IMG/VR virus record: IMGVR_UViG_3300044448_004019
Coordinates: 1 to 42,993 of that record
Source of the DNA: a virus
Lineage: Duplodnaviria; Caudoviricetes
Strand: one strand, 5' to 3'
Length of the DNA stretch: 42,993 nucleotides
Both the position numbers and the translations under genes were made by a program. Shown here one piece after another: positions 3 through 22,500 of this stretch (position 1 is the first letter of the stretch; the number at the start of each line of letters is the position of its first letter). Under the pieces are notes generated by a model. The model was given only the letters and a program-made list of their open reading frames with translations. It did no database searches and had not been told where the DNA came from.

Positions 3-470
3 ACGCCAGTGTTCTTGCCGAGCGGCACGGTTGTGACGTCTAACGCGGCAAACGGTCTCGCGCAGGACACTCACTACTTTGTGTATCGCGACGAGAACGA
101 CCCGACGAAGGCGCGTTTCAAGGTGTCGACCACGCCAGATGTAGGCGGCGACGACCCGGTCACGGGTAACGTGACGCTCACGCTTGTTCCGCAAATCATC
201 GCGGACTCAGGTGAAATCCCGCTGGCGCGTCTGCGCGAGCAGGCAAACACGTCAGCGCAAGACGGTGGGCGCCCAGCAGATCAGGTGCTGATTAACAGCA
301 ACCCGCTGCCAAGCAGTCTGATGGCTCCGCTCCAACGTTACTTGTTTGCGCGTTACATCCCGTCTGCCGCCTTGCACAGCAGCAACGGGGGCAAGGTAAC
401 CTGCGATGTCGGTATCAGCGTGCCAGACAACCGCGGCGTCTTCTACGCTGTGGGGTCTGAGATCAAGTGA
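3..470 (+). CDS. Bbp16-like capsid cement/decoration protein (5'-truncated by window edge)
   Basis: Frame is open to the window start. The C-terminus 'LQRYLFARY...GGKVTCDVGI' resembles the Bbp16-family C-terminal signature, and the gene lies just upstream of the tail genes. Confidence 0.55.
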   Translation, partial: TPVFLPSGTVVTSNAANGLAQDTHYFVYRDENDPTKARFKVSTTPDVGGDDPVTGNVTLTLVPQIIADSGEIPLARLREQANTSAQDGGRPADQVLINSNPLPSSLMAPLQRYLFARYIPSAALHSSNGGKVTCDVGISVPDNRGVFYAVGSEIK

Positions 471-955
471 TTACTGACGCTACTTACGAGTTCTCAGACA
501 GCCAAACGCTTGCGACGCCAGTCGATCTTGCGAGCGGCACGTTTGGGCATGCCTCGACGAACTACGTCAAGGCTGAGCCATTGAACGACAGCGGCGGGCG
601 AACTCAGTTCGTCCACGTCCAGTTTACTGGCACCTCGGCGCTCGACGCGAACGTCACGGTCGAGCTTCGCGGTTACGACACGGAGCCAAGCTCGAATGCG
701 GCGGCTATGAATACGGACAACTACAAGACAGTTGCGTCGTTCACCGTGCTTGCCGCAGACACCGCTCCGAACAAGGACTTCTACCTGCCCTTGGCTTCGT
801 CGGGCGTCGACACGCTGAGCACGCCTCCGTACAAGTGGTGGCGTGTTGTCTACTTGATCGCTGAAAACGCGGCTGGCGGGGTGAAAGTCTCGACGTCGCT
901 GACGGACGCGATCACGAACGACCCGCGGATCTTCTCCGCGAAGAACAGCACCTGA
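467..955 (+). CDS. Bbp16-like capsid cement/decoration protein
   Basis: N-terminus 'MITDATYEFSDSQTL...ASTNYV' and C-terminal 'YKWWRVVY...GVKVSTSL' fit the Bbp16 family. GTGA overlap with the previous stop codon. Confidence 0.6.
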   Translation: MITDATYEFSDSQTLATPVDLASGTFGHASTNYVKAEPLNDSGGRTQFVHVQFTGTSALDANVTVELRGYDTEPSSNAAAMNTDNYKTVASFTVLAADTAPNKDFYLPLASSGVDTLSTPPYKWWRVVYLIAENAAGGVKVSTSLTDAITNDPRIFSAKNST

Positions 956-1026: not shown

Positions 1027-4000
1027 ATGGCGTCTTCCTCACTTCCTGTTCGTAAAGTGCTCATCACCCTTGGCGAAGGGAACAGCACTGCCGTTGCCGA
1101 CGCAAAGACGTTTGAGGACGCCAACCCTCGGACTTCTCTGCGTAACCCGAAAGCCGAGCCGTTCGCGCGCTACGTCACCGAGTCTTCGGGATCGCGCGAC
1201 GAGATTGATCTAGGGGCGTCGTTTGGTGATGTGCGGTACGCAAATTACCGCGACCAAGGGGCGATGAGCGTCCGCTACCTGACGTTCTACAACCCGGTCT
1301 CAACTCGGTTCGACCCTTCGTTCCCCAAGGTGGGCGCGTCTGGGGCGCTAGCTGACGGGCCGATCCAGTCCGCGACTTTCCCAGGGACGTGCCAAGTCAC
1401 CCGCGTCGACAGCGCAACTCAGTTCGCTACGGATCTGATCTGGGCACACCCGCTAACCGGCCACACTCGCACGGTGACGCGGTTGCGGACTGGCGACGAG
1501 CACCAGCTGACTGAGCCGCTTGACGAGCCAGCGGGCGGCACGGACGCCGCAGGCTTTGTGACCCTGATTTCTACGACGTCGTTTGACCCTCCGTTAGAAG
1601 TCGGGGAGCGGTTTACTTACCCGCTAGTGGGCGACGAAGACTCTGCGGCTGGCGCCTACACGGACGTAGACGCGCCTGCGATGACTGACAAGAACCACGT
1701 CAGGCTTGAGGCGCAGTTTGGCGGCTACTGCGACGCGGGCGGCACGCTGGACCCCGACAACGCTGGGTGGGGGACCGCCTACGGCGCCGCAGGGTCCGAC
1801 GACAAAATCACTACGCGGACAAACGCCGCCACGCTTACGGCGAACTACGTCGAGTTTAACTTCCGCAGGCTCCGCGTTGGCCAGCGAGTCCGGCTCAGCG
1901 GGTTTACCGGAACCGGGGGCGGCGGCAGTGATCTGCACGTAAACCAACCCTCGGCTAGCACAGACGTCGCCTCGACGACCGACTTCTACGTTGTGCGGGT
2001 CACGCAAGGCACTGCGTCTAATAAACCGCGCGCTTACTTGTCGACGACACCAAACGGCGCAGAGGCCACGTTTAGCGACATTGGAAACTCTGGTGTCTGC
2101 CAGCTTCGCTTCATTCCTCGCGCTGCCGAGAACGCAATGGCGGGCCTGCAGATTCGCTGCCTGACTGGGGCAAACGCGGGGCTTACGCGCAGCTTGTCGC
2201 ACGCAATCCCTACGATCCCTTCCGGTACGCACCCGTTTACGACTAGGTTGTGGCGGCTGTTCGTAACGGAAGACTGGACTAACGTGCCGCAGGCTGACGA
2301 CACGTACACCATCCTCCCGCCGCCTGCGGCGGACAACACCGCGGTACCGTTTGACAAGTGGGCGTACTTCTTGCCCGCGTGCCAGTTCTTTGGGCGCGAG
2401 GCCGGGCTGCCTAGCCCGCTCAAAATTACGTGGGACACAACAAACGTCCAGTGGGACTCAGTGTCTCCCAGCCCGGCCATTTCAATCTACGCTGGGTGCC
2501 CGGTCAGGCTTTACGAGATCGCAGGCGTAACTAGCGTAGGCCAAGCGTACATCGACAAGACGTACTACGCAGTCCAAGTCAAAGACAATGGCTCGTTCGG
2601 GCTTTCGGAAACGTACGACGGGGCGCCTGTCAACTTTGGCGGCAGCACAGTTAGCGCGCTTCTAAGCTGGGAAGAAACGTTCACGCGCAAGCACAACCCT
2701 GCGCCTCCTGGGTTCAACTACTCAAACTTGCAGTCTGCGCCCGTAGCGTACCAGCCGTTTAGAGGCGGGTCAGTTCACGCTACGCCGCTCGCGGGTCAGC
2801 CTAAGATTGCTTACCACTGGGGTCTTGCGCAACGCATGGCTGAGCGGTTGGGCGAGCCTCTTTACGTCATCGACCTTTCGCTTTCCGACACGTCGTTGGC
2901 GGAATCAACGGTGCCTACCGCCGCACAAAGCGGAGGCCGCGGGTGGCACGACCCTAGCTCCATGACCCACTGGGCCGCGGGTCCGACCGCGCTCCGAGAC
3001 CGGTGGGTCCGTCACTTAGACGCCGCAGCAATCGCAGCCGCGCGCGAGGGCGTCCAGCTGGAAGTAATCGGAGTCGTGTTTGTGCAGGGCGAGTCTGACG
3101 CGGCTACTCAAGAGCTTGCTGACCGCTACTACGCTAATCTGGTCGGGTTCAAAGAGTTCGTTCGCAAGACTCTTAAAGACCTAGGCTGGTGGTCTAAAGA
3201 AGCCCATGAGTTGCCGTTCCTTCAGCCTGAAGTTTACCCGCGGCTGCAAGCAGGCGCGGCGTTAGCCCCTTTCACTACGGTAAGCGCTGCGATCAAGCGC
3301 GCGGCGGACGAAGACCCGTTCAGCAAGTCGTGGTCAACTAGCAAGTACACGCTCGGCTCAGACGGGAAGCACTACACAGGCGCGGGGATGGACTTGATGG
3401 CGCAAGACGCGTTCACCCGTCTCGACGGGTACGTCAACGCGCTCGACGTCCCGTTGCGCATCTGCAAGCTGGCGCTGTCGCTAGCTGGTGAGAAATCGGC
3501 GATCACCAAGGTGTTCCCGTCGGACGGCAGTGCTGAAGCGGATTTGTGCGCGCAGTTCTACCCAGAAGCGCGAGACCGCATCTTGGAAGCGCACGCGTGG
3601 GACTTCTTGGTCCGTCACGCGTCGCTAACAGAAGCGGCGACAAACGAGCGCACGGACTGGAAGTACGCTTACGATCTGCCACCTAACGCAAGCGGTATTC
3701 TTGGGCTGGGTGAAGACATCACGTCGGCGTTCGACTCGCGCGCAGTAAAGATCAAGTTCTCTGTTGAGCTAGACTCGCAGTCGCAGCGCGTGCTGTACGC
3801 CAACCAACCCACGCCGCTGACGGTTCGCTACAAGGCTAAGACGGTGGACGCGCGCCACTTTAGCGCTACGTGCGTCCAGGCTATCGCCTACTTGCTGGCG
3901 TCGATGATTATGCGAACCGTGATGAAGAGCGAAGAAGGCATCAAAGCGGGCGAAGCGATGGAGCAACGCGCGTTCCAGATGTTTAAGACTGCGGCGTCTA

Positions 4001-4062
4001 ACGATTCCAATCAGACGCGCGACCGTTCGCAGTCTCAAAAGATTGGGTGGCGGCGCTCGTGA
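1027..4062 (+). CDS. Head-tail adaptor (tail tubular protein A-like) fused to an N-terminal SGNH/sialate O-acetylesterase-like region
   Basis: C-terminal ~200 aa 'ICKLALSLAGE...EADLCAQFYPEARDRILEAHAWDF...WKYAYDLP' is the adaptor pattern. SGNH-type blocks 'FVQGESDA' (QGESD at 3085-3099) and 'DGKH' (3361-3372). Lies directly upstream of the nozzle gene. Confidence 0.75.
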   Translation: MASSSLPVRKVLITLGEGNSTAVADAKTFEDANPRTSLRNPKAEPFARYVTESSGSRDEIDLGASFGDVRYANYRDQGAMSVRYLTFYNPVSTRFDPSFPKVGASGALADGPIQSATFPGTCQVTRVDSATQFATDLIWAHPLTGHTRTVTRLRTGDEHQLTEPLDEPAGGTDAAGFVTLISTTSFDPPLEVGERFTYPLVGDEDSAAGAYTDVDAPAMTDKNHVRLEAQFGGYCDAGGTLDPDNAGWGTAYGAAGSDDKITTRTNAATLTANYVEFNFRRLRVGQRVRLSGFTGTGGGGSDLHVNQPSASTDVASTTDFYVVRVTQGTASNKPRAYLSTTPNGAEATFSDIGNSGVCQLRFIPRAAENAMAGLQIRCLTGANAGLTRSLSHAIPTIPSGTHPFTTRLWRLFVTEDWTNVPQADDTYTILPPPAADNTAVPFDKWAYFLPACQFFGREAGLPSPLKITWDTTNVQWDSVSPSPAISIYAGCPVRLYEIAGVTSVGQAYIDKTYYAVQVKDNGSFGLSETYDGAPVNFGGSTVSALLSWEETFTRKHNPAPPGFNYSNLQSAPVAYQPFRGGSVHATPLAGQPKIAYHWGLAQRMAERLGEPLYVIDLSLSDTSLAESTVPTAAQSGGRGWHDPSSMTHWAAGPTALRDRWVRHLDAAAIAAAREGVQLEVIGVVFVQGESDAATQELADRYYANLVGFKEFVRKTLKDLGWWSKEAHELPFLQPEVYPRLQAGAALAPFTTVSAAIKRAADEDPFSKSWSTSKYTLGSDGKHYTGAGMDLMAQDAFTRLDGYVNALDVPLRICKLALSLAGEKSAITKVFPSDGSAEADLCAQFYPEARDRILEAHAWDFLVRHASLTEAATNERTDWKYAYDLPPNASGILGLGEDITSAFDSRAVKIKFSVELDSQSQRVLYANQPTPLTVRYKAKTVDARHFSATCVQAIAYLLASMIMRTVMKSEEGIKAGEAMEQRAFQMFKTAASNDSNQTRDRSQSQKIGWRRS

Positions 4063-7000
4063 AAACGCGCAAGCATCAGTACTCGTTTGCCGCAGGCGAA
4101 GTCAGCCCTGAGTTCTACGGGCGCGGCGACTCTGCGCAGTATCAAACCGGCGTAGCTACTGCCCGTAACTTCGTCATCAAACCTCAAGGATCTGCGCGCA
4201 CGCGGCCAGGGCTTGAGTACGTAGGGACGGCTAAAACGCAGAGCACTGCGTCGCATCTGATTCCGTTCTCGTTCAACCTAAACGAGTCTTACGTCTTGGC
4301 GTTCGGTCATCAGAACGTCCGGTTCTATCGGAACGGCGCTCCTGTTCAGTGGGCCACGCCTGCTAACGTCGGTGACCCAAGCAGCGCAGCGAACGTAAAG
4401 GTGGGGACGGGAGCCGTTGACGGTTCGCTTTGGCAACGCATGGGCGGGTTTATCCTCGACACCCCGGTAAACTTTTCGGAAGGCGATTTGGTTTACCTGT
4501 CGAACGAAGGCAGCGCTAGCGGACTGCCTTCAATTGGGGCTGCCTCAGGCTCTCCTGCAGCGGGCGGACTGTTGACGGTTGACCGGCTGTATCAGGTCTA
4601 CCCAGCAAGCGAAACCGAGATAGTCTTGTACGACATCCTCGCCAACAAATACGTGAGGATCAGCGCGCTGGGGTCCAGCGGTTATCTTCGGATGTGGCGA
4701 GTTCTACCGCGCATCGGCGCGCACCCTACGCACGGGGCTGTCACCCGAAACCACGGGCGAATTGGCTCGGCTGAGCTTTACAGTCCACGAGGAAAGATTG
4801 GCGGCTCCCAGGACAGCGACCAGTTCTTCTTTGGTAACGCAGACGAGGACACTGCTGCTCGCCCCAACTACGTCTTAGGTGAACACGTACGCGTGGCGAC
4901 CGGGTCGTCAGAAGCCATCCCGATCGCGGGCATGGGCGCTTCGGAGAATGACGAGTCTGAAGACTTGTATGTGTACGAGGTTGGCACTGGGTCGTTCGGC
5001 GGCGTCACTCAGTTCTACGCCAAGCTGACTTCGTCAGCGCCAGCAACTTGGGTAGCTAACGGTGGCGCCGTTGATCCGGCAGCCAACAAGAAGACGCTAG
5101 CTAACGCTCAAACAGGCGGCTCAGGCTCAGGTACGATTCGCCGCCGATACGCCGCGGGCACACTGGTCTACAACCCTACAACTTCAGGCACGGGGTCGAC
5201 CTTCTACACGGCCAAAACTACGTTCACGGACGACGGCAATTTCTTTACGGTTGAGTCGTCAAACTGGAGCGCGCTAGCGTTCGACGGGAGTCTTGAGCTT
5301 ACGACTCCCTACGACGGTGCTGACGTTAGCGAGATCGGCTACGACCAGTCGGGCGACATCCTGACGCTGGTTCACCCTAAGTACCCTGAGCAAGAGGTTA
5401 AGAGGTTCGGCAACACGTATTGGACGATCGGTGCCATTACGTTTAGCCCGCCGCTTGCAGCCCCCGCCGCCCCGACGATAGCTCGTACGTTTTCGCAAAC
5501 GTACGCAAACTTTTCGGAGGCGACTACAGGCACGACGACCCCAGGGGGTGGTACTAGCGGGGCATCCAACGAAGTTGGCGGGCAGTACATCGGCATCTTT
5601 AACGATCTTGCCGCGGGCGACATTCTTCAGGTCCGCCTTCGGGGGTCTCAATGCGGAGAGTTCGCCGGGGCGAACAACACCAACAACGACCCTACGTTTT
5701 CAAGACGGCTTGACGTAGATGAGCTTGTCGTGGTGGCGTCGGTCGAAGGCAACGTCGCTCTGACTGGCGGAAGCGCAATTAAGCAGCAGGTAAAGTTTTC
5801 GCTGCGCACCCTAGAATCAGGTAGGCGAATCTACGGGTGCCACAAAGACAACGACCAATACGTGTTGTCGGATCTGATCCGCAACAACAACAAGTACCGA
5901 ATTGGGGCGGTTGACCGCGACGGCGCTGAAACGCTAGGCGCAGAATCAGCGGCGGCAATCAACGCGCTTGACTTCGCAGGCGCGAAGAACACGTTGACTT
6001 GGGCTTCCATCACTGGAGCGGACAAGTACATCGTCTACCGGCAAGAAGGCGGCACCGGGCTTTACGAAAAGATCGGTGAGGTCGTAGCGACCACCGGCAC
6101 GCAGACCTTTATCGACGACGGGCTGCCCGCCGATGGCAGCGTTACTGCGCCGCGCTACGACTCAGACGTCACAAACGCTGAGAACTACTCGCGCGCAACT
6201 GCGCGCTTTGAACAGCGTCGGTTGTTCGCCGGTAGCGACTTGTTCCCGCGCCGCCTGTTCTTGTCTAGGTCAGGTACTGAATCAGACTTTTCGTTCCGCA
6301 TCCCTGTGCTAGACACTGACCGGATCTCGGTCGAAGCGTCGGCACGCGAAGCCCACGTCATTCGCCACCTCGTCCCGCTTGGCGATCTGCTGATGCTGAC
6401 CCAGCTAGGCGAGTGGCGACTGTTCGCTGTGAACAGCGACGCGATCACGCCAAGCACGGTGTCGATCAGACCGCAGAGCTACGTCGGCTCGTCAACTGTC
6501 CGTCCAATCGTGGCCAACAGTTCTGTGCTGTTCTGCGCTGCGCGCGGCGGGCACGTCCGCCAGATGGGTTACGAAGCGGCTCGCAGCGGCTTCACAACCG
6601 GCGACTTGTCTTTGCGCGCGGCGCACCTGTTTGACGACTTGGACATTGTAAGCTCGGCCTACCAGAAGTCTCCGGCGCCGGTCGCGTGGTTTGTGTCGTC
6701 AAACGGCAAGCTGCTCGGTCTTACGTACGTGCCTGAAGAACAGGTTGCTGCGTGGCACCAGCACGACACCGACGGGACGTTTGAGTCGGTGACTTGCGTG
6801 TCGGAGGGGGCGGAAGACCGCGTTTACGTAGCCGTAAAGCGGAAAGTAAACGGGGTCGATGTCCGCCACATCGAGCGGATGTCGACGGTCAGCCCCGACT
6901 CCCCTCTCCCGACGCTGTGCCTTGACGACGCGCTTACGTACGTGGGCGCCGTCTCTTCTCAAGATTTGCGAGTGTCGTCGGGCAACCTTGAGGCGGGCGG

Positions 7001-7682
7001 CACTGTTAACTTGATCCAGCAGAGCAACGGCGGCGCAGATGCTGACGGAACCTATCTCAACAAGTTAACTGCGCAAGACGTAGGCCGTCGCGTCGTCCTT
7101 AGTGGAGGCTACGTCTTAGAGATCACTGCGTTTACCGACATCAACAACATCACTGCCAAGGTGATTACTCCGTTCCCTGCCGACAAGGTGGGAGTGCGGC
7201 TGGCCTACGAAAAGACGGCAACTCGACTGACAGGGCTTTCTCACCTTGAGGGGGAGACGGTGACCATCGTACGCAGGATGGACCAAGCCGAGCTAGGGGT
7301 TACGGAGACCGCAGTCGTGACCAACGGCGAAGTTACGCTTGGCGATCACGCTGTCTTTGTAGACGTAGGGCGCCCGTACACCTGCGACCTAAAGTTGCTG
7401 CCGACGACGCTGCAGATGCCCGCGCTGGGCTACGGCAGAGAGAAGGCTGTTAACCGTGCGTGGGTCCGAGTGTTCGAAGCCGCAGGGCTGTCGGTAGGCC
7501 CGGACGAAAACTCACTAGCCCCCGTCGGTGAGCTTCAAGACCTAACTAAATTGGCGACTCAGCAGACGCGCAACATCGTGCCGTCTGACTGGGACGAAGA
7601 CGCTTCGTTGCTGATTCGGCAGACAAAGCCGTTCCCCGCAACGATCGCCGCAGTAACCATTGAAGTGAGTGTGGCAGAGTAA
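4059..7682 (+). CDS. Tail nozzle / tail tubular protein B-like, enlarged (~1207 aa)
   Basis: 'SFAAGEVSP...ARNFVIKPQG...RPG', 'LIPFSFN', 'QSGDILTLVHP', 'FEQRRLFAG' and 'VAAWHQHDTDG' are typical nozzle motifs. GTG at 4059 overlaps the upstream TGA, so it is preferred over 4047. Confidence 0.85.
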   Translation: MKTRKHQYSFAAGEVSPEFYGRGDSAQYQTGVATARNFVIKPQGSARTRPGLEYVGTAKTQSTASHLIPFSFNLNESYVLAFGHQNVRFYRNGAPVQWATPANVGDPSSAANVKVGTGAVDGSLWQRMGGFILDTPVNFSEGDLVYLSNEGSASGLPSIGAASGSPAAGGLLTVDRLYQVYPASETEIVLYDILANKYVRISALGSSGYLRMWRVLPRIGAHPTHGAVTRNHGRIGSAELYSPRGKIGGSQDSDQFFFGNADEDTAARPNYVLGEHVRVATGSSEAIPIAGMGASENDESEDLYVYEVGTGSFGGVTQFYAKLTSSAPATWVANGGAVDPAANKKTLANAQTGGSGSGTIRRRYAAGTLVYNPTTSGTGSTFYTAKTTFTDDGNFFTVESSNWSALAFDGSLELTTPYDGADVSEIGYDQSGDILTLVHPKYPEQEVKRFGNTYWTIGAITFSPPLAAPAAPTIARTFSQTYANFSEATTGTTTPGGGTSGASNEVGGQYIGIFNDLAAGDILQVRLRGSQCGEFAGANNTNNDPTFSRRLDVDELVVVASVEGNVALTGGSAIKQQVKFSLRTLESGRRIYGCHKDNDQYVLSDLIRNNNKYRIGAVDRDGAETLGAESAAAINALDFAGAKNTLTWASITGADKYIVYRQEGGTGLYEKIGEVVATTGTQTFIDDGLPADGSVTAPRYDSDVTNAENYSRATARFEQRRLFAGSDLFPRRLFLSRSGTESDFSFRIPVLDTDRISVEASAREAHVIRHLVPLGDLLMLTQLGEWRLFAVNSDAITPSTVSIRPQSYVGSSTVRPIVANSSVLFCAARGGHVRQMGYEAARSGFTTGDLSLRAAHLFDDLDIVSSAYQKSPAPVAWFVSSNGKLLGLTYVPEEQVAAWHQHDTDGTFESVTCVSEGAEDRVYVAVKRKVNGVDVRHIERMSTVSPDSPLPTLCLDDALTYVGAVSSQDLRVSSGNLEAGGTVNLIQQSNGGADADGTYLNKLTAQDVGRRVVLSGGYVLEITAFTDINNITAKVITPFPADKVGVRLAYEKTATRLTGLSHLEGETVTIVRRMDQAELGVTETAVVTNGEVTLGDHAVFVDVGRPYTCDLKLLPTTLQMPALGYGREKAVNRAWVRVFEAAGLSVGPDENSLAPVGELQDLTKLATQQTRNIVPSDWDEDASLLIRQTKPFPATIAAVTIEVSVAE

Positions 7683-8380: not shown

Positions 8381-10515
8381 TGCCGATTAGAGTGCCATCG
8401 GGTCAGCTGCGTCCAGGGTCGATCGACTCTGTGCAGCCTGTTCAAACGCAAAGCCCCGGCCCAGCGCAAGGCTTGCAAGCGCAGCAACTCGGGCAGACCG
8501 CCCGTGTGGTAGGTCAAGTCGGCGCGGCGACGGCTAAACTTGGGACCGCGCTAGTTAAGGACGCCAACGACGCAATGAGCAAGCAGCAAGCGACGCTGCA
8601 CGCGCGCGACCTTGACAGTTTGCTTGGCGAGTACACGCGACTGCAATCGTACGACGCCTACGAAGGCCGCGAACAGTTTGAAAAAGAAGCGGCTAAACTG
8701 CGCGAGAAGTACGCGAAGAGTCTGGCGAACCAAGACCAGATGACAATGTTCGACACGATGGTCGACGCGCAGATGAGCCAAGCGATGGGGCGTGCGCGTC
8801 AACACCACTCCAAGCAGACGCGTCTCTGGAACATCGAGATAACGCAAGTCAACATGAACCGGTTCGCTCAGGAGTACAGCGAAGCGGCAGCAAGCGACGA
8901 CGAAGAGCTTGAGTTCTTCGACATGGGCGAAGGTTCGCAGCAGCCTACTACGGCTAACGTGGGGCGCGAAGACCGCATGGGCGTTGCTCGTGCTGCGATG
9001 GAAACAGAGTTCGGCAAGTTGCAACAACTCGCCGGGCTAGACGCTGCGACGGCCAAAGCGCACAAAGAAACAGCGGTGCAGGACTTGCACAACGCGACGT
9101 TCGGCATGCTGATGGATCAAGACCCGCGCAAAGCCCAGCGCTACCTAGAACAGCACAAAAAAGAGTTTGACCCCGCACGCGCGGCTGCGGCAGGTGAGAA
9201 GCTAAAGCGAGAGTTCTTCAACGCTGAAACGCTAGCTACTGTTCGGGCATTGATGGCGGACGTCGGTGATGACCCGGCGGTCCAGCAAGAAGCGCTGACC
9301 GCGCTGATTAACGACGAAACTGACCCGGACAAAGCAGCGCGCTACGCGCAGTACGGGAACGCTGAGCTTGCACGCTCACAAGAGGCGTACACAAAACAAG
9401 CAAACGAAGTAGTAGCAACGGCAGAGGCGTGGTTTTTTGACCCGGCTAACGCGGGCAAGAACTACGACGAAGCTCCTGTATCTTTGCGCAACAGCGTAGA
9501 ACGGTTTGGCGTTCAAGAGGAGATCCAAGAGATTGTTGGCGAGCGAGCGCGTCGCACAGCGGTTAGCCAATTCGCCGCCGTTTACCAAGACCCACGCCCG
9601 CTAGTGGGAATGCCAGAGCACGAGTTGTTGCGAAGGTACAACCGTTACCTCAGCACGGATGACATGCAGGTGCTGAAGGCTCTTTGGAAAGAGGTAAACG
9701 CTGACCCAAGCCGCGGCCCCGCGCCGAAGTTTGTGACAATCCAAAAAGCTGCCTCTTTGGCTCTGTCGAAGTACGGGTTTACTGAGCAAGCTCTTAAAGA
9801 CGACCCCGCTTTGGTGGCGCGTCGAGACGCGTTTCTTCTCGACATGCAACGGCGCGCAGACCGCGACGAGCTTGATGGAATGGGTCCGTCGCAGCTGCAC
9901 GACTTCATGTCGGACTTGCTGGCGTCGCAGACGACGTTTGAGGACACGTCGTGGTTCGGTGGACTTTTTGGAGCCGAGTACGAAGAAGGCACTCCTTTAG
10001 CTCTGCTAACTGACGAGCAGTTCACGTCCGGCAGCCACAAAATCGCTTTCCTAGACCGCGAAGGCCGCACTCAATACGTGTCAGTTAACGAGATCATGCC
10101 GGGCCGCGACAAGAGCGAACGCGGCGCGTACAACTTGCTGCATACGTACGCGACGCAAACCATCCAAGACACAAACAAAGTCGCCATTGCTCCGCTCTTA
10201 AAGGTTGCCAGAACAAACCTTGCTAAAGCGTACGGCGAGAGTGACAGCGCGGGGGTAGAGGCGGCTACGCTTCAGATAATTGAACTGCAAAGGCAACAAG
10301 AGCGAACAGCTACAATGCAAGACGTCGCCGCTTTGTTCCATCTTTTAGGTCGCACCAATGACCCCAACTTGATCGCCAAACGGTGGAGTCAATACACTAG
10401 CGGGGTGGCGCCAAAAGGGTTTAAGGCCGAGCCGCATCGACCTCTTGGGTCTGATGACGTCGGTTTCATCCTCCGTGAAATCAGTAACGTCCGCATCGGG
10501 GGAGGCGGCGTTTAA
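8380..10515 (+). CDS. Internal virion (ejection) protein, T7 gp15-like position
   Basis: 711 aa, helical, with a Pro/Gln-rich 'MPIRVP' N-terminus. One-base overlaps with both neighbours. Confidence 0.6.
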   Translation: MPIRVPSGQLRPGSIDSVQPVQTQSPGPAQGLQAQQLGQTARVVGQVGAATAKLGTALVKDANDAMSKQQATLHARDLDSLLGEYTRLQSYDAYEGREQFEKEAAKLREKYAKSLANQDQMTMFDTMVDAQMSQAMGRARQHHSKQTRLWNIEITQVNMNRFAQEYSEAAASDDEELEFFDMGEGSQQPTTANVGREDRMGVARAAMETEFGKLQQLAGLDAATAKAHKETAVQDLHNATFGMLMDQDPRKAQRYLEQHKKEFDPARAAAAGEKLKREFFNAETLATVRALMADVGDDPAVQQEALTALINDETDPDKAARYAQYGNAELARSQEAYTKQANEVVATAEAWFFDPANAGKNYDEAPVSLRNSVERFGVQEEIQEIVGERARRTAVSQFAAVYQDPRPLVGMPEHELLRRYNRYLSTDDMQVLKALWKEVNADPSRGPAPKFVTIQKAASLALSKYGFTEQALKDDPALVARRDAFLLDMQRRADRDELDGMGPSQLHDFMSDLLASQTTFEDTSWFGGLFGAEYEEGTPLALLTDEQFTSGSHKIAFLDREGRTQYVSVNEIMPGRDKSERGAYNLLHTYATQTIQDTNKVAIAPLLKVARTNLAKAYGESDSAGVEAATLQIIELQRQQERTATMQDVAALFHLLGRTNDPNLIAKRWSQYTSGVAPKGFKAEPHRPLGSDDVGFILREISNVRIGGGGV

Positions 10516-13500
10516 TGCTTGACTACTCGCAAGATCCGCAAGATCCGCAAGACCCGCAAGGGCCTGTTCAAAGCCCTACCCCAAAACCGCCGCGCGAGTT
10601 CAGTCAAGTCGAGCGGTTGTTTAGCCTGAGTCAAACTCCAGGCTTGCCACAAAACGTGCGTGACGGTCTGCGTTCTCGCGCGAAAGAAAAACAAGGGACG
10701 TTGCTGTCGCTGGCCGTAGCGACGAAGCAAGACCCGCAGCTTGCCGCTGAAACCAAGCAGATGGCCGAGCGGCTTGGCGTTTCAGAACAAGACGTCGCCA
10801 ACAACCCGACGTACGCAAAGGCGCTGCTCCAGGCTGTTGAGATCCAGGCTGCGGAACAGGCGCGGCGCGACCCGGTGCTGACCCGGTACATGCAAGACCC
10901 CGAGCTAGCCAAGATTGCTTGGGACGACTACACGACGCTCAAATCAGGCGGCGTCTGGGTAGGCAACTGGGCGGGCGGTCAGCTTGAAGCAGAGAAGGGG
11001 CGTGTCGGCACGCTGTGGCGCCAGAACCGAGCGACTCCTGCAGACATGGAGTATCTCGCCGAGATTGAGCACCAATTGCTGTACGAGTTGCCTAGCGGCA
11101 ACTCGTGGTACGGCGGACCCGCGCGCTTGCTCGGGCAGATGTCGAGCACGATCCCAAGGGCGTTAAGATACGGCGTTTCGCTTGCCGCTACCGCAGGCAT
11201 TGTGGGGCAGATGGGGCCGCAAGCGGCTTTCCCTGAAGAAGTGGTCACGATGCCCGGCGCGTTCTGGACCGGGTTCTACACCGGGATGACCGAAGGCGCT
11301 TTCAAGATTGAAGGCGGCATTGCGTACGTTGATTACCGCAGAGCAGGCTACGACCACGAAACCGCCCGATGGTCGTCGTTCGTCGTCGGTGCTCTGAACT
11401 CTGCCGCCGAGCTTGTAGCGACTAAGTACTTTACCGTGCCTGCGCTTAAAGGCATCGGCAGCGCTGCTGCCGCTGGCGTGCGCAAGCTGATGCAACGCAA
11501 GATCCGCGAGAACACGGTGGAAGCTGTGACTGCGATGACGGCGGGCAGAGCGCTGCTAAAGTTTGCAGGCGGTGTTGCGGGGGGATCTGCTAGCGAAATC
11601 TCGACGGAAGAGTTCCAAGAGTTGACGCTGATGGTGGGCGAAGAGATTTCGCGCGCGATGTCTGACACGGTCGGGCAGCAGATGAAGACGCGCCGCAAGA
11701 GTTTTCGCGGCGTAGACCGAAGCCCGCTGGGAGTCGGCGAAAAAGGCGACTACGACATTCGCTACTCTGACGACGGAATCACGGTCGGAGCAGACCTGTT
11801 CACCGCTGTCACTGGGATGAAGACCGACCGGCCAATGCGCCTGGGAGTCGACTACGACGAAAACGTCTTTGCCGAGCAGTACGACATTGCGTTGCCGCTT
11901 TCGTCGGCTTTCCAGCGCGGTGAGGTCATGCAGCGTCTTGCAGAGACTGCGATCTACACCATGAAGGGTGTGTGGCTGCTTGCGGGCGTCGGCCCCGGCG
12001 TGCAACTCGCTATCGACTCCCACCGCGTCAAGGGGGCCAAACGTCGCCACGAACTCTTGCTTAAGGGCGACGACGCAGCTGCGCTGTCGAAGCTGGCCGA
12101 GCGAGACCCCAACACGTTTGAGCGCTACTGGGCAGACCAGTTTCAAAACCAAGACGGCGAGGGGCGGTCAGACACTGTTTACGTAAACAAAGAAATCGTG
12201 ACCCGGCTGCTTGAAGGGCTGGGGATGACGAAGGAAGAGCTTGCAGTTTTGCTGCCTGACGTGGCTCGCCAGCTTGACGAGTCCGCAGACGTTGACTCAG
12301 ACATCGCCATTCCGGTATCGGAATGGTTAGGCAAGAAGCTGTTTAACACGCCTCTCGGCCAAGCTATGCAGGACCACCTGCGGCTAGGTGGTAAGGACTC
12401 GCTTAGTTTTGCTGAGTCAGCCGTCTACAACAAGCAGGTTGAAGAGCAGGTAAAAGCTCTTGAAGAGAACCGCTCGAAACTTCGCGCGGCTCGCCAAGAG
12501 CGCCGAGACGCTGAAGCGCAAGCAGGCAAAATTGAAGAGCTTGACGAGCAGATTGCAGCTGTCGAAGAAGACATCGCCAATCTAGGTTTGAACGAGCAAG
12601 ACGCTGAAAAGCTTGCGGAAGCCCACGTCAAACTAGAGGCTTTGCAAGAGCAACGCGCCGAAGTCGAGAAAGTCGCTAGCGAAGCTGAGGTTAAAGACCG
12701 CGCAGCCGAGATGCGCGTCGAGGCGCTCGAAGCTCAAATCCAAACGGCGAAGGCCGAAATCGCAGATGCTCGGCAGGCTGCAGCACAAGCGCGTCAAGAC
12801 GACAACCTTGCAGTAGCCGTGGCGCAAGACGCGCTAGCGGACAGCGCGCAGAAGCGTTTGGACGAAGCGCAAACGGAGCTAGGTAAAGCGCGACGCGAGC
12901 TAGCAGAACGCCAAACTGTAGAAGACGAAGCGCAAGCCGAAGAAGCGGAACAGAAAGCGCCTGACGCGCGACAACTTGCGCAGGAAACAACGCGGATTCG
13001 TCAGCGTCTGCTTCGACAGTTGAGAAGCACCGGGAAGTTTGACAGCAGCCAAGCGCGAATTCAAAGCGGGCTGTTCGCGCACATGTTGGAAGTCATGGCC
13101 GTGCGGCTCGGCATGACGCCAGAAGCGTTTGAAGCCAAGTATGGCCAGTTTAACATCGTTGCAACTGCTGACGGGGCCGCAGCAGTGCCGATGCAGCAGA
13201 CGCAAGCGGCGATCGTTCAAGCGACTGAAGTTGTTCAAGTAGACAACACCAGTGCGTTTAACAACGAGTTCCCCGAGATGCGCGTTGCGCAAATCGACGA
13301 CAACTTTGTGTACTTTGTCGTTCGGACCGAAGACGCGCAAACGCTGCTAAACGATCAGCAACTAGATCTTGACGCCGTGCCGCTAGGTCTAGGGTCCGCC
13401 CGAACTGGCGTTCGGTTCTGGGTAGAGCGCGCCAAAGAGTTGACGGGGACCGACAAGCTTACCGTGGTGCGTGTCCCGCAAGCGCTCGTTAACGCTGAAG

Positions 13501-16500
13501 GGTCTGCTTTGCGCTACGACAAAGCGCAAAGCGATCAAGCGCAGGCCGAGACGTTTAAGCTAGACAGTACGCTTGACCTCGGCGAAACGGCTAGGGAGCA
13601 GTACAACGAGCTAGTTGCGGCCCGCAACGCAGTAGTTCAAGAACTGTCCGAGACCGCGCTGTTGTCGGCGCTCGCCCAAGGCAACAGCGTCCCGGTAGCC
13701 TCGCTCAGCGCTGTGCAAAACGCAGGGCAACTTGGGTCAGGCGGTGCGATCACGCTTGTCGGGACTAAAGATTCGCTTGGGCCGTCCGCCACGTCAGGGG
13801 CGGCTCAAGACGCCGCGGCTTCGCGCGCCGTTTCCATGCAGTCCCAGGTTTCGCCGGAAGGTCAGCAGTTCTTGCAAGACCGCCTAGAAGCCGCGCTTAC
13901 TCGATTTGTAGAAGCGGGCGGCGACGTCAAAACCCTAGGGCCGGAGTTTACGGAGATCATCTACCCGTCGCTGCCCGGCAACACGACAACAAGCCCGCTT
14001 TACGCATTTGTCCAAGCCAACGCCGATAACCATTTCTTGGTTCACGCGTTGCTGTCTACACCGGGTCGTGCGCCAGCAATCGCAATCGCGGACGACGCAA
14101 TGTTCACCCGCGTCACGCGACCGCTTGGCTACGAGTTCTTTGACCAAGAACTCGCGTCGTACCTAGCGACTGAGGGAGCGCGTATTCTGCAGGTGCTGCC
14201 CGCCACCGCGAGACTTGTCGAGGTGTCGGCTGAACTGCGCGAGCAGTTGGGCGCAGCAGCGTTGCGCACCGGGCGGCAGGATTTGGTAGACAGCTTGACT
14301 GCCCCCGACGCAGCCGCCGTCATGCAGGCGGCTACGCTTCGCCAGCTTGTGGCTGCAGCGGAGATGTACAATTCGCTTGCCGTCAACACCCAAACGCTTA
14401 GCCGCGCTAACCGCGAAAAGGTGCTCCTAGACTACATGGGGCGCTACATTTCAAACCAGCTTCAGCTGAACGGGGAGTCAGTCGAAGCGACTCCAGAGAA
14501 CATTCTTGAAGCGGCGGTACGTCTTGACCGCTCAGCTAGCGGCGCAACCGGCCCGTCTGTAATTAACGGGCGGTCCAACACGATCTCGCTAACGGCGGCA
14601 CGAGACCAACTCGGCCCGTCGTTGTACGGCCAGCGGTGGCATTTTGGGGTTCGCGCGAAGTCGTTGGAGTTCCAACGGTTTGAGGTTTGGCGAGAAGCTT
14701 TGACCAACGGCAACCGCCAAGCGTGGGGTGAACCTGCGCTGCGTGCGTTGTTCGCGGTAACGCAGCAGGACAGCCCCACGGTAGAGACCGCGTATCGAGC
14801 GCTAGAGGCGCACGGGTTTACGGACGTTGCACCCGACGTTGTGCAAGAGACCTTGCAGATTGCGGAGCTTGTTCGCGCCAACCCGTTTGACTTCTTTGAA
14901 TCGCAACTAGACCAGAGCGTTGGGATCGACCGGTTCCAAATTGCGATGGTGTCGCCAACTGTTGACCAAGTGACTCGTCGCGCTTTGCGCGACCGCGGGC
15001 TTCGGGTTTTTGTGTACGGAGCGCGCCGCGTTGTCGACACGACTAAAGCTCTAAACACGCTCGACGACGGAAGCGTTTTGCGGCAAGACCAAGACCCGCA
15101 AAGCGACATCGGCCCGCTGTACTCTAGGCTCACCCGCGCGATCCAGACTACTGAGGGGAAGAAAGCCAAGTCAGCCGCGCAGTGGCGACAAGCGGCTAAC
15201 GCTTGGAGGAACAAGGGTGCGGTAGGTGAAACCGAACTTGACTACTCCGGCTTCGAAGAGTTGATGACGATCATGGAGGCGGAAGGCATCAAGGCTACGC
15301 CTGCCGAACTCGCTGAAGCGTTCACCACTCGCAAGGCTGACACGTCAGTTGCGGAAGCCGCCGGTCGCGCGGGCGCAGGCGAAATCCGCTTGCGGGAGCT
15401 TGATCTGCTTCAGTCTCCGATTTTGAAGTACGAAAGCGACGGCTACGCTGCGGTTTCAGTCAGTACGCCTCGGTCGGTGCCGCACCCCGAAACGGGCCGC
15501 TACGAAATCGTTGCCGTGAGTTCGGAGACGGTCGATACCTCCAACATTCACCGAGGGTACAGCGCTTTTAGCGTTACGCCTGACGGGCTGATTACAGCGA
15601 TTGCGCGACTGCAACTGCGGGACCAAAAAGGAGCGTTCCCGGTCAGCGCTGAAGACGTCGCAATTCTCTCCCAGCAGCAAGACATCTTCACCGACCCTCT
15701 GCGTTTGGATCAGTCAGACGCCGTTACCCGTTTCTCGCAGGGAGATCCGGTTGTTGTGTCGGCTGCGCTGTTTGCTGAGCTAGGCCAAGACGTTCAAGGC
15801 GCAGCCTACGTGTTGGTCGACAGGCAGTCGGTGCTAAGCGAAGACAACCTCGCGATGTCCGACCAGCAGATTGCGCAAGAGTTTTTTAATCTGCTGTCGC
15901 AACGAGCGCAGCAAGACGATTTGGAATGGTTCGCGCTTCCGACGTCACTGGACGCATCCCGCATTTCTATCGCTGCCGAAACGTACAAACTGGACTGGAC
16001 TGCCGACGAACGCGCGTACGCGGTTAACCGCGGCGAGACTCTGGAAGAGTCGCCGTTTGAAGGGCAAGTTTTTGCAACTAAGGAGGAAGCAAACTCGGCA
16101 CTTGCTCAGAAATACCCGCCGACGGCTAGCATGTCGGTCGGCGCAAACACCACTGCAGGCCAGCGAGGCTTGACCATCTCAATCGCGGATGGGCAGTGGC
16201 TCATGGTTGAGAACGAGACTGGAGACGAAATCGCGACGTCGGAAGAATACCCTGGCGTTCGGCTAGCAGACCCGACGTGGGCTGCCAACGCTGGGACCGG
16301 GTACGCCGATGAAACCGACGTCATCAGAGACATGGTGGGGGAGGCGATGGTGCCTTGGTTGCGGGCGAACGCGAAGAAGCTGAGCAGTCTCCAGCCGTAC
16401 ACGCAATGGCAGGGTATTACGCTAGCCGCTAAGACTTCAGGGTACGCCAACCCAGAAAACTACCGAGAGTTCGTGTGGGTCTTTGACACCAGGGCCAAGA

Positions 16501-19500
16501 AGGTAGGCAAACCGCCGCGAGGCTCCGGGTCAAACCAATCCTACTACCACTTCCAAGACGCAATCTTTCACGTTCGCGTCTACGACGTCTACGACGCGCA
16601 GGGCCGCAAAATGCTCTGGGTGCAAGAGTTCCAAAGCGACTGGGCGCGTGCAGGCTACGCGCAAGGCTTGTTTAAGTACCCAGAAGCAAAGCGCGGCCCA
16701 GACAGCGCTGTGGTTAAAGAATACAACAAGCTGAAAGATCAGCTGGACGTCGCACAGCGGGAGTATTCGGTATACGAAGACGCAGCGGTTAACCGTCGCA
16801 TTGCCCTTTCCAACAACCTAGGCGACTTCTCGTACAACGAAAATCAGGAGTTTAGTCCGGCTGGAAAGATCTTTTTGAGCAACGGGGAATTAGCCGAGTG
16901 GGGTTTGCGGAGACGCGGCACCTACCCCGATTTTACAGGGGGCGAATATGTCGACGTAGTGGTGAGAGCAGACGAAGCCGCAGACATCCGAGGCCGAGGT
17001 GCAGAAGCTGAACTTACTGTCGGCAGAGTTCGCATGCTCACGCGCAGCCACGTAGACGGAAGCAAGGCGTTCGCTCAAAACGCCACCTTGGAGTTTGAGG
17101 TAGCAGGTTTGCACTACGACTTTGCGAACCGCCCCGATATGGCCAACATCGACGTGGTTAAAACTCGGGACTTCTACACCGATCTTGCCGTTGCGCTGCC
17201 TTTCAAGCTTATGACGCTTCTTAAGGCTGAGCAGGTTGCGTTGACTACGTCACGCGACATCTCAGGGAGTCAAACCGCTGACCTCAACCAAGCGATACGC
17301 GACAACTCCGACTTTGTCGACGTCAGCAGCAGCACTGTCGATAAGATGGAGATCAACCAATCAGACGAACTGAGCGGATACCTTAGCGTAACGCGAGTTG
17401 ACCAGTCGCTTGTTGACTCTCGCAAGACGCTAGCTGAGAAAAAGAAGCCTCTTCTAGCGCTTCAGCAGCGCGTTAAGAAAGCGGAGAAGATTGCGACGGG
17501 CCAAGGCTCGATCAACATTGCCCCGCTGGTGACGTCTCGTAACGCGTGGAACGAGTTTGCCGTCAAGCGAGTTACCGCGTTGGCGGTCAGAGAAAACTAC
17601 GCGGGTGTGGTTTTCATCACGGGCGACGAAGGCCAAGTCGCGTCCTACGGCGTCTTGTCAGGGCAGCGAGCGGCGTACGACACAGACTTGCCTAACGCGG
17701 TTAAGAAATCTGTCCTTAAGAAAGGGAAGGCGAAGCTAGAGAAGATCGCGATCCCGTTCCACCGAGACGTTAAAGCCGCTGACGAACGGTCCGAACAGGG
17801 CATTAAGCCGTCTGCCCGAGAGGTCAAGGCAGAGCGCCAAGCGTTGCGCGACGATGCAAACAAGGCGCAAGGCGTTCTTGAACACTCTATGCGGGAGGCG
17901 TTTAAGTTCACTTTGCTCCATGATTTGGTCGACGCTGAAGCGACCGACTTCTGGTCGACGTCTATGTCGGACGCCCAGTTCCAAGCGCTGAAACCCCTGC
18001 TTAAAGACGAGCTTCTGCCGTATGCAGTCTCTGCAATAAGTTCCGGCTACTCGGTGTTTACGGCAAACGACAACGGCACGGTGACCGTTGAGAACTACCC
18101 GCTTTGGTCTCGACGCCAGAGCAACAAGTTCAACGAAAAGATGGCCAAGCATTTGGGGCACCAGCTTAGGCAAATTTCGCCGGTTGATAAGGTCGGCGGG
18201 GCAGTGCCCCCCTTGGACAAAGACGCGCTTTTGCCGGAGGTCTCTGACGAAAACTTTGTGCAAGGGTGGGACGCCAACTCAAACCCAGTGCAAGAGTTCG
18301 CAGGGTTGCAATGGAAGTACGTTGAACTCACAAACCCGACTTACGGGGACATTCTGTACGTGGTGCGCCACCCCAACCACCCGGCGATTGAGTTCTACAT
18401 AGGCACTAACCGAGCGTATAACCGGTTTAGCATCGCCCCGGTGTACGTTCGCCGCAGAGAAGGCCAAGCGGCTCTTGCTAACGGCGACCTGACCGACGTT
18501 GAACTTGCAGACTGGGCGACGGCCATTAAGCGGATTCGAACGGAGTTCGACATTGGCGTTAAGTTCGTGTCGCGGTTTGCCACCAAGCTAAGCGAGATTG
18601 ATTACGCAGAGCCGTCTGTCATTGAACGTCGGCAAGGTCGCCGTTCAGCGGAAACCTCCGTTCTTGCACAACTCAACAACGCTGAAAGGGTAGACGACTG
18701 GCGAGCCTCGCGAGACACAAAGCGAGTTACCGCGGTACCCCGCAGCGCTCTTGCTAACACTCAAAGAAAGGTCGCCGAAACCCGCTCGGTTGAAGACGTA
18801 GACCGGTACTTAGAGGCGTTTGTTGAAGACCCGGTCGCGCGCGAAAAGATAGCGGAACGAATTGCAGACGATCTTTTAGCTGTTCAAGAAGCGACTGCTA
18901 AAAGTGGATGGAACCCCGGCTTCTACATCAACGACAAGATTCGTCAGATGTTTGGGGGCGAACAGCCCTATCTGCAAGAGGGCGAAGAAGACATGGCTCC
19001 GGCGCGCGGGGCGATCAACTTGCGCACCATGGCGGTGTCGCTTGGCCCAAATGCCAGCGTGTCGACGTTCTTCCACGAGTCGGCGCACTACTTCTTTGAG
19101 CTAATGTTGATGATCGCGCAACGGGGAGACGCGACACAAGACATTCTTGATGACCTCGCCGTGCTAGCCGAGTGGGGTAACTACGCCAGCGTCGACCAGC
19201 TACTGCAGGCGACTCGCGCCGAACGCAAAAAGCTGCACGAGGCGTTTGCGTATTCGTTCGAAAAATACCTCGCAAACGGGAAGGTTGAGTCTGCAGACCG
19301 CTCGCTGCTAGGGCTGTTGCGGTCTGTCCGGCGGTGGATCGTCAACGCTTACCGCGACATGGTTGGCAGCACGGTCAACGCGATCTACCAGCGAGAGTTC
19401 GGCGAAGCGATGCCGGAGCTTAGCGAAGAGGTGCAGGCGGTTATGAGCCGTCTGATTCAGACTCAAGAGATGGTGGAGTACGCCAAAAAGGTGCGCTCTC

Positions 19501-22500
19501 TTTCCGAGCTTCTTGAGCTAATCGGCTCTCAAGAAAACCTAAGCCAGCTGAGCAAAGAAGAGCTTGCTCAAGTTCAACAGCTGCTGCTAAACGCAGACTT
19601 TGAAGCCGAAGAACAGTTAGGCGCGATGATGTTGCGTCAGCTGCGCTACTTGAGCAACTTCCGGTCTAGGTTCCTGCGCGACATTCAGAAGCAGACTCGC
19701 GCGGCGCGTAAGCAGGTAGAGGACGACGAGCGGGAGAGACTGCAAAACCAAGGCATTTACAGGCTCCAAAAGTTCTTAACTACCGGCGAGTTTTTGAACG
19801 CTGACGGCGAAGCCGAGCCTACCGGTCTGCCCTCGAACCGCCTGCTGCGCACTGAGCAAACTGCATCTTTGCCGGACCGGATGCTGTCCAACACCGGGGT
19901 TTCGGCGGACGTTCTGGCTCCGGCTTTTGGGTTCCAGTCCGGTGACGATCTAATTGATTTGCTGGCTAGCAGCCAGACGCTTGACGAAGCAGTAGCCGCG
20001 GCAACTGACCGCCGCATGCTCGACGAGTTCAGCGAGTTGACAGACCCGTCAATCGTTGAAGAACGGTTAATCGAAGCCATGAGTGGGCCAGCGCTGCAAA
20101 AGCTACTGGCTACTCAGCTTCGTGCTTTCGATCAGGGGCTACCCGATTCACGCGTGCTGGTTTCCGCCGCGCGAGTTGTAGCCCGCCGCGCGATTGGCGA
20201 CGTAGACGTGGGCGCGCTTCGCCCAATCGACTACTCGCTAGCTGCAGGCCGCGCTCAGCGGCAGGCCGTGGAAGCTAGACGTAAGGGAGATCTGAGCGAG
20301 TACCGTCTAGCCATGCGCCGCGCGTTGTTCCAAAACGCAATGGCTGAAGAAGCCGCGAGTGTCCGTGACGAGTTGCGCAAGCAGACTAAGCGTTTGCGTG
20401 AACGAGTGCAGCGCACTGACAAGAAGCTAGCGAGCCAAGGTCGTTTGACGCCCATCGTCAAGCTAGCGCGCCAACTGTTAGCCGCCTACGGAGAAGCGAC
20501 ACCACCGCCTGAAGTCGCAGAAGATCCGCGCGCTGACGTGCTCGCGCCGTTGCAAGACCCTGATCTGTTTGCGCCTGAGCTTTACTTCGACCTAAGCACG
20601 CTGCGGAACGACGCGCTTGTCGCCGCCAAGCCGTTGAAGGAGATGAAAGTCGACGAAGCGCTAGACGCTCTCGACACTCTTGACGGGTTGTGGTTCCGCA
20701 GCAAGCGTGAACAAGACATCGTGATGGACGGCAAGCGGGTCGCGGTTGACTCGGTGCTAACCGAGATCGAAAAGACGCTCGAAGCGCACGACCGCGCAAC
20801 CCGAAAAGTCGCTGGGTCTCTGACAAAGTCAGAGAAACGAGGCCGGTGGTTGCGCGCGCAGAAGGCGCAGTTCACACGTATGCGCTACGCGCTAAAGGTG
20901 CTCGACCGCGGCAAGGCTGACGGCATCTTTACAAAGGCGATCTGGAGACGCGGCAAGGACGCCGCCAACCAGATGCGTTTAGACGAAACAAAATACCTGA
21001 AGCAAGTCGCCGAGCTTCTCGATTCGCTGGATCTGCCTGAAGGCACAATCACCGCGCGCGAGCTATCAAACGGTACCGACTTCGTCTTCGGCAACGACGG
21101 CACCAGCGGCAAAGCTCAGCTGCTTATGGGTCTGCTGCACAGCGGCAACGAGTCCAACTTGTTCAAGTTTACCGTCGGCTACAACATCGCCAAGTACAAC
21201 CCGCAGACGGGCAAGGCGGAAGGGGTTGAGCGCTGGCTGGAGTATGTGCAGAGCAAGATCGACGACGGCACCATCACCAAGGCTGACATGGACGCCGTCC
21301 AAAAAATCTGGGACTTGATGGAAGAGATCAAGCCGCTGGCGCAACGCGCCCACTTCAGCTTGTTCGGCTACAAGTTTAAGGAGATCCCGGCGCAACCGTT
21401 GACGTTCTCGTTCCCTGGAGTTGGCGAAGTTGTGTATCGCGGCGGCTACGTCCCCGCGCTGACAGACCCCAACCAAGTAGTCGACGCCCGACTGAACAGC
21501 TTTGACGACTCGCTAGAGTTCCAAAAGGCGATGCCTAATGTGCCGCGCGGGTTCACCCAAAACCGTGCCGCGCTCTACGCCGAGCCGCTAGACTTGGATC
21601 TTCGCCGTCTTGGTGTGCATATCCACTCGGTCTTGCTGTTCAGCCACCTTGCGCCTGCAGTCAAGGACATCCGCCGAGTCGTAGAAAACCCGCGCTTTAA
21701 GAGGGCAATCGACGCGGTAGACCCTGGGTTCCGATCGGAAATCTTGGTCCCGTGGATGGAAGCTTTGGCGTCGCAGCGGACGACCATGTCCGGCAAGGAC
21801 GCATGGGGCTGGCTAAACCGCTACAGGTCTCGGGCCGGTGCTGCCACGATGTTCGCCAACATCAAGAACACCGCGCAGAACTTGACCGGCATCGCGGTTG
21901 CGCTAGCAATCATCCCGCGCAAATACATGTTCCCTGCGCTTGGCGACGTGCTACGTGACCGCGAAGGAGCGATGCAGCGCGTCGCTGACCAGTCGGACTA
22001 CATGCGCGACCGCTTCGAAAGCCAGAACATCTACGAAGTTCGTGACCGGCTGGACGCGCTGCTAACTGAGCGTTCCAAAACAGGCAGCGTTGTTGCGTGG
22101 TTTGAGAAAAACGCGTACTGGATTCAGCGGCTAACGCAGGAACCGATCGACGCCGCGGTCTGGATCGCCGCCTACAACAAAGCTATCGCCGACCAAGGCG
22201 CCGGAGTAGACGGCGAAACCGCGCACCGGGAGGCGGTGTACCGCGCCGACGACGCGGTGCAGCAGACGCAAACGTCGAACAACCCCGAGGACTTGTCGGT
22301 ATCCGAGCGGGGTTCTGCAATGGCTAAGCTGTTCTTGCAGTTCCGAGGTTGGTTCATCAACTACGGCAACTTTATCGCGTCTGAAACTCAGATTCGCAGA
22401 ACCGGCGGTGAAGCGGAAGGCAGCCTTGCCGCGCTCTACATGATCGGCATCTTCGTTCCGCTGGTCGGCGCTGAAGTTATCGACTCGCTAGTCGACGGCG

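Follow-up and report, generated by a model that had tools for sequence, protein, structure and literature searches.

Why would a phage build an enzyme-like domain into the ring that joins its head to its tail? Head-tail adaptors usually pass for small, well-conserved plumbing, and enzymes that face the host are placed at the tail tip. The question is raised by a 42,993-nucleotide viral record (IMG/VR IMGVR_UViG_3300044448_004019; Duplodnaviria, Caudoviricetes), hereafter the window, in which a single open reading frame encodes an SGNH-esterase-like module followed directly by a podovirus-type head-tail adaptor (coordinates in Table 1). A first-pass annotation had read this gene as a neck ring bearing an esterase or binding appendage on each subunit, in effect a built-in receptor-binding apparatus. 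Our analysis establishes that the fusion exists, and indicates that its module has been moved between unrelated neck proteins and that the window copy, which lacks the catalytic serine, is probably inactive.

The fusion of both folds in one conserved reading frame is real. Word-indexed searches recovered 11 other full-length clusters (P0002-P0012), 10 of which are 42-65% identical to the window protein by BLAST. Four of the 22 listed sequencing runs were examined at the junction near position 3440, which is crossed without an indel by contigs of X13, X7 and X14 (X7 is possibly the window's own source); X20 yielded no contig piece there. Among 34 strain-variable codons, from 40 of the 50 listed differences, 27 changes are synonymous and 7 non-synonymous, and none of the listed holders of the sequence is RNA. 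Because the fusion is independently conserved and contigs span its junction, an assembly or sequencing artefact that joined two genes has a negligible chance of being the explanation. Thus, the single in-frame fusion proposed by the first-pass annotation is confirmed, and it occurs elsewhere, both in these clusters and in the 184-sequence family described below.

The C-terminal 204 residues are a head-tail adaptor. They match PHROG 394 (positions 5-180 of 190, E 2.4e-27), BPP-1 Bbp14 (30.6% identity, E 3e-18) and the Carin-1 connector (8CK1, chain entry 8ck1_E), and have the fold of these proteins, a helix bundle plus a beta-dock; the domain covers residues 808-1011, against 806-1011 as first claimed. 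In sequence and fold, and in having its gene just before the nozzle gene, this part resembles Bbp14, the Carin-1 connector, T7 gp11 and KP32 TTPA (5MU4). Unlike the fusion, those podovirus adaptors are stand-alone proteins of about 200 amino acids. The 43-kb record is that of a BPP-1-like podovirus, with terminase, portal, nozzle and family A polymerase among its genes, and the fusion gene lies between the capsid cluster and the nozzle gene, as podovirus adaptors do (the capsid side being taken from the gene order of relatives). A six-frame search of the window found no second adaptor-like frame, leaving the fusion as the only adaptor found there. Adaptors of the BPP-1/gp11 kind are reported to form 12-mers whose beta-dock holds fibres (PMC13730344), and by analogy the window adaptor would form a 12-mer between portal and nozzle.

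Upstream of the adaptor, residues 648-784 match Pfam SASA (PF03629) above the cut-off, and the module has an SGNH fold. The first-pass annotation was right about the fold and wrong in treating it as continuous: a SASA/CE6-type SGNH domain is split into residues 8-95 and 556-804, with about 460 beta-rich residues between them. The inserts are all-beta by predicted secondary structure, at mixed confidence, and consist of a core and a small repeat present twice. The two core pieces were found in 36 and 38, respectively, of the 39 family members compared; the repeat copies align to each other by hhalign (probability 94%, E 1.3e-7). Across the family, the insert varies from about 90 to 1030 residues.

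The active site of the window copy is altered. SASA enzymes are reported to need the block I Gln-Ser pair and the block III QGE motif, substitution of which abolishes activity (PMC9487903). The window protein retains Q687, G688 and E689 together with D779 and H782; Gln-Ser is present in all 11 close relatives, versus Glu-Gly in the window, and its block II reads Ser-Asp where most relatives have Gly-Gly. The Glu17-Gly18 codons are identical in contigs of X13, X14 and X20 and in loci L001 and L006. Because this pair replaces Gln-Ser, we class the window protein as a predicted SASA-fold pseudo-enzyme, lacking the catalytic serine, and not as an active member. The intact Asp779, His782 and QGE, and a serine two residues past the lost one, could suggest that the window copy is still an enzyme, through Ser20 or another nucleophile. 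We consider this very unlikely, since Gln17 and Ser18 are both replaced, block II has departed from Gly-Gly, Ser20 is Gly in most relatives, and the changes fall where substitution is reported to inactivate SASA enzymes.

How widely is this module used, and on what? A profile of the module alone, searched against 1.84 billion 50%-representatives, gave 2231 matches at E 0.001; tightening the threshold to 1e-10 and 1e-30 left 388 and 131, respectively. The best 150 profile matches and 39 earlier sequences, minus three duplicates and two ordinary SASA proteins (P0155, P0157), make up a family set of 184, which is biased to top matches and includes near-copies. With profiles built from the family members themselves, 172 of the 184 fall into five C-terminal classes: a podovirus adaptor (140), the siphovirus Ad1 adaptor (15), a SU10-adaptor-like domain (6), an unclassified 165-amino-acid domain in the Mu-like adaptor slot (6) and a gpW-like domain (5). 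Most of the 12 sequences in no class are, by our reading, cut or derailed; P0075 and P0152 stop shortly past their complete SGNH domain and may exist as modules on their own. The genomic contexts of P0013, P0019 and P0152 were not found in viral contigs. P0143, seen as a protein only, continues from its SGNH domain into a 183-residue tail of a sixth, unclassified kind.

Gene neighbourhoods are consistent with these C-terminal classes. Ad1 carriers (L009, L021, L030, L035, P0019, P0050, P0066) match PHROG 477 / PF20557 with E from 2.9e-42 to 6.3e-30, and their genes follow the capsid genes and precede those for head closure and neck; the order is capsid, fusion, neck, tail tube, tape measure in L009 and capsid, fusion, head closure, neck, tube in L021. 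The gpW-like fusions match PHROG 2545/118 (best E 2.4e-7 for L038, 3.1e-4 for L042, 7.8e-7 for L043, 1.2e-4 for P0046 and 1.2e-6 for P0048) and lie between the terminase and lambda-type portal genes, as in L038 and L043, where the terminase gene comes before the fusion and the lambda portal gene after it. These gpW-type fusions (L038:2824-4899, L042:2819-4882, L043:1468-3540) have a longer Ala/Pro/Thr linker, the distance from the catalytic His to the adaptor start having a median of 40 residues versus 23-28 elsewhere, a measure that depends on where the profile starts; a longer linker is what a smaller ring would need. Two of the six SU10-like members, P0145 and P0146, match PF24175 over positions 2-185 of 194 (E 6.5e-5 and 1.8e-5, under the curated cut-off), and the fusion of L048, in the same class, is positioned after portal and capsid genes. 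In the Mu-slot class (L032, L044) the order is Mu portal, capsid, fusion, neck gene. The Mu-slot tail is modelled, at low confidence, as four helices and a hairpin, and has no Pfam, PHROG or deposited-phage match. Its candidacy as a gp36-like adaptor comes from that model and from its slot between Mu-like capsid and neck genes; hhalign against Mu gp36 alone scored at shuffle level and gave no sign of homology. Directly 5' of the fusion, the Mu-like carriers share a conserved 450-amino-acid gene of no known family (L032:6645-8000, L044:6648-8000). No profile-profile similarity was found between the five C-terminal classes, whose profiles are shallow, so that a remote common fold is possible.

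Two pairs of modules are close across these classes. L032 (Mu-like) and L021 (Ad1) share 63% identity in 640 module columns, a similarity that ends at the last SGNH helix and gives way to unrelated tails; the modules of L042 (gpW) and L022 (Ad1) are 46% identical, with the same border. In a tree of the SGNH core from 39 sequences, the adaptor label needs five changes, the minimum possible being three, and starred branches force at least two changes for Ad1. We name no donor because the tree is in effect unrooted. These comparisons indicate that the module is a mobile cassette, joined to at least three unrelated connector types.

Of the 169 members in which block I is visible, 154 keep its Ser, 145 of these being recognised by pattern and 9 by eye, and 15 lack it; another 15 of the 184 lack the N-terminus and fall outside this count. 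The columns matching Q687, G688, E689, D779 and H782 are conserved in 161, 172, 168, 146 and 168 of the 184, and most family members look active from their motifs. A FastTree phylogeny was built from 165 C-terminal halves, among them 14 from Ser-less members. The loss needs seven changes on it, at least six of them forced by well-supported branches, and several Ser-less members also lack the His. Esterase activity thus appears to have been repeatedly dispensable while the fusion persisted.

What could such a protein do? We lean modestly towards a crown at the neck that would attach to O-acetylated polysaccharide on the host surface. Active forms would let go again by deacetylating it, and the window phage would only bind. 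The adaptor behind the split SGNH-fold module would build a 12-subunit neck ring on the portal, as its solved relatives do, and the module would be displayed outward 12 times, once per ring subunit. We place it on every subunit because a single adaptor gene was found and no internal start is conserved at the junction. Relatives with intact Gln-Ser, QGE and Asp-x-x-His would, from fold and motifs, be carbohydrate O-acetylesterases, and the inserted beta domains likely confer specificity. The crown would then give the phage a multivalent, accessory hold on capsule or exopolysaccharide, one that binds and releases if active. The cassette may have been traded among unrelated phages, with a 12-fold neck protein as anchor its sole requirement. 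Of the earlier proposal, an appendage on each ring subunit fits the single adaptor gene found, with 12 copies taken from solved relatives; its esterase activity is not supported for the window copy. A primary receptor device also loses ground, the module being found on siphovirus, lambda-like and Mu-like neck genes as well, and an accessory grip is more likely.

The main rival is a structural collar, in which the module would serve to stiffen the neck against the capsid or to dock fibres, any esterase activity being incidental. An N-terminal immunoglobulin-like domain of the roseophage R4C adaptor is reported to touch the capsid (PMC10276861), adaptor-borne collars are described in A1002, DEV and GP4 (PMC13730344), and the family has lost its nucleophile at least six times while keeping the fold. 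In addition, the link between SGNH domain and adaptor is short and near-constant (medians of 28, 27, 27 and 23 residues from His to adaptor start in four classes), as for rigid packing. However, the Ser is kept in the great majority, and QGE and His in most, even between deeply diverged members; unrelated adaptors and capsids are combined with the same module, a distribution hardly compatible with a specific capsid contact; and the range of insert sizes is typical of exposed, host-facing parts. We therefore rate a purely structural role as unlikely. A further alternative is that the parts act separately: the adaptor would arise from an internal start or by cleavage, the module would be a soluble enzyme that frees phages from cell debris or masks receptors, and the ring would carry few appendages or none. 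Phage head genes offer a precedent for internal starts (Mu gene I/Z, from the record's annotation), and P0075 and P0152, two of the 184, end after the SGNH domain, their context unseen. Against this, no conserved in-frame start codon occurs at the junction in the 16 loci, of 19 tried, where it could be located; the linker is only a few residues; and the fusion has been remade on several adaptor types instead of being left as a free gene. Separate action is accordingly improbable.

Several points weigh against the proposed binding crown. Long-tailed carriers have their neck a long way from the tip that contacts the cell, which is why we favour an accessory over a primary receptor role. The authors of the R4C study assign the accessory domain at the neck to stability, not adsorption (PMC10276861), and repeated loss of the Ser, sometimes of the His too, is as compatible with a structural role as with a lectin role. 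Binding and virion location are predictions for the whole family, as is activity in the Ser-containing members, and sugar binding by the inserts is drawn by analogy; the insert domains gave no Pfam match and no usable Atlas match, and fold searches with them were filled by SGNH rows. The model of the window protein has a mean predicted local distance difference test score of 62.6, with block I residues 18-21 below 50.

The module combines traits of several known systems. The family shares the SGNH fold, Gln-Ser, QGE and Asp-x-x-His with SASA/CE6 O-acetylesterases (PF03629; 1ZMB, 2APJ, NanS 3PT5) and with CE20 (7KMM); unlike these, its domain is interrupted after block I and fused to a virion neck protein, and the window copy lacks Gln-Ser. 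SGNH domains of phage tail proteins are reported to deacetylate lipopolysaccharide or capsule, as in G7C gp63.1, and two Klebsiella prophage proteins are active on p-nitrophenyl acetate (PMC13123978). Such tailspikes and fibres (G7C gp63.1, 4QNL; Pan3 tailspike, 9VYH; Klebsiella prophage receptor-binding proteins) are separate tail appendages, whereas here the domain is covalently part of a predicted neck ring, also on the neck genes of long-tailed phages. Adaptors with an accessory domain, as here, include that of R4C (PMC10276861) and a 741-amino-acid adaptor-fold protein of Vibrio phage VP2 (BFVD Q6RCF4); those domains are small and immunoglobulin-like, with no enzyme fold and no shown transfer of one module between adaptor families. 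Reported sugar hydrolysis by TTPA has been attributed to the adaptor fold itself and not to any fused enzyme (PMC5440376). In haemagglutinin-esterases, too, an SGNH domain on the virion surface is interrupted by an inserted beta domain (PMC9487903), a parallel in architecture only; they differ in having the classical block III Asn and in being animal-virus membrane proteins. Accessory domains on adaptors and SGNH tailspikes are thus known, and what is unusual here is the placement rule.

The module has no match in 50,697 deposited phage records; P0001 matched 58 of them, all at less than 80% cover, and the 20 listed match the adaptor part only. An adaptor-SGNH fusion was not found in literature searches, the scope of which excluded subscription papers and supplements, and the accessible part of PMC10684548 treats shuffled neck passage proteins and SGNH fibres with no mention of adaptor fusions. 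BFVD holds two unnamed look-alikes, including A0A516LTA4 at full length (E 2.5e-55). Among 46 pattern matches a single one came from GTDB, on a 9.8-kb contig of a Henriciella metagenome-assembled genome. Because the same protein occurs on a 45.9-kb contig, we read it as a binned phage and do not take it as evidence of the host.

Several neighbouring genes deserve mention. The nozzle has 1211 amino acids against 712 positions in the PHROG 376 profile, implying large inserts, and by the repeat profile the nozzles of L002 and L023 contain the small repeat of the fusion's insert. A segment similar to this repeat is also inserted in the first of the two Bbp16-slot genes (the profile matched the corresponding L006 gene, E 0.0018); it seems that carriers of the fusion place the repeat in several of their structural proteins. 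The two upstream genes had no family match in the window library scans; the same-slot genes of L007 match Bbp16 (PF21190) and PHROG 427, and the order in L002/L003 is capsid, two small genes, fusion, nozzle. The record is linear, begins inside the first of these genes and is about 1.6 kb shorter than the longest contig (44,616 bases) encoding the same protein cluster; none of the 24 window open reading frames scanned is a capsid gene. After the tail and ejection-type genes, positions 10515-22922 encode a 4135-amino-acid protein matching PHROG 9880 (unknown function), presumably a giant ejected protein. A repeat-rich 364-amino-acid protein with tail-fibre PHROG matches (35610-36704), the only fibre-like gene noted among the 24, lies just before the small terminase gene, distant from the tail module.

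Table 1. Features of the fusion gene and its neighbours in the window.
Feature	Position	Strand	Evidence
Whole fusion gene, 1011 amino acids: split SGNH module plus head-tail adaptor	1027..4062	+	Uninterrupted open reading frame, relatives, strain variation
N-terminal SGNH piece, residues 8-95: strand 1 and block I	1048..1311	+	
Glu17-Gly18 where SASA enzymes have their Gln-Ser nucleophile pair; catalysis predicted to be lost	1075..1080	+	Sequence comparison
Beta-rich inserts, ~460 amino acids: family-wide core (~118-232, 368-450) and two small repeat copies	1312..2691	+	
Repeat domain copy 1, residues ~270-364	1834..2118	+	hhalign against copy 2
Repeat domain copy 2, residues ~462-550	2410..2676	+	hhalign; repeat profile matches nozzles of L002, L023
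C-terminal SGNH piece, residues 556-804: degenerate block II, block III QGE (687-689), block V Asp779/His782, last helix	2692..3438	+	
Podovirus head-tail adaptor domain, residues 808-1011 (BPP-1 Bbp14 / Carin-1 connector / T7 gp11 type)	3448..4062	+	Sequence and fold
Nozzle gene, 1211 amino acids, normal adaptor neighbour	4047..7682	+	PHROG 376 E 1.8e-159; Pfam Phage_nozzle E 1e-4, below cut-off
Two small tandem genes, Bbp16 slot between capsid and adaptor genes	3..955 (3-470, 467-955)	+	Gene order of relatives

Taken whole, we tentatively propose, with slightly less than even confidence, a portable neck cassette. Podoviruses, siphoviruses, lambda-like phages and Mu-like phages that infect one host group would exchange a split carbohydrate-esterase module, each joining it to the 12-fold protein that caps its portal. 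The virion would thereby gain twelve bind-and-release enzymes around its neck, a crown that has decayed time and again to a pure lectin, as in the window. The presence of one module on unrelated neck proteins of different tail types would imply selection for the position itself and a shared host surface polymer. Nature also offers a Ser-containing/Ser-less pair, P0002 and the window protein (65% identical), which could separate binding from catalysis. Adaptor N-termini tolerate 300-1200 extra residues, a property useful for display on phage particles. Finally, the family marks a large uncultured aquatic phage group without a deposited representative, to which the window, from a marine phage, belongs.
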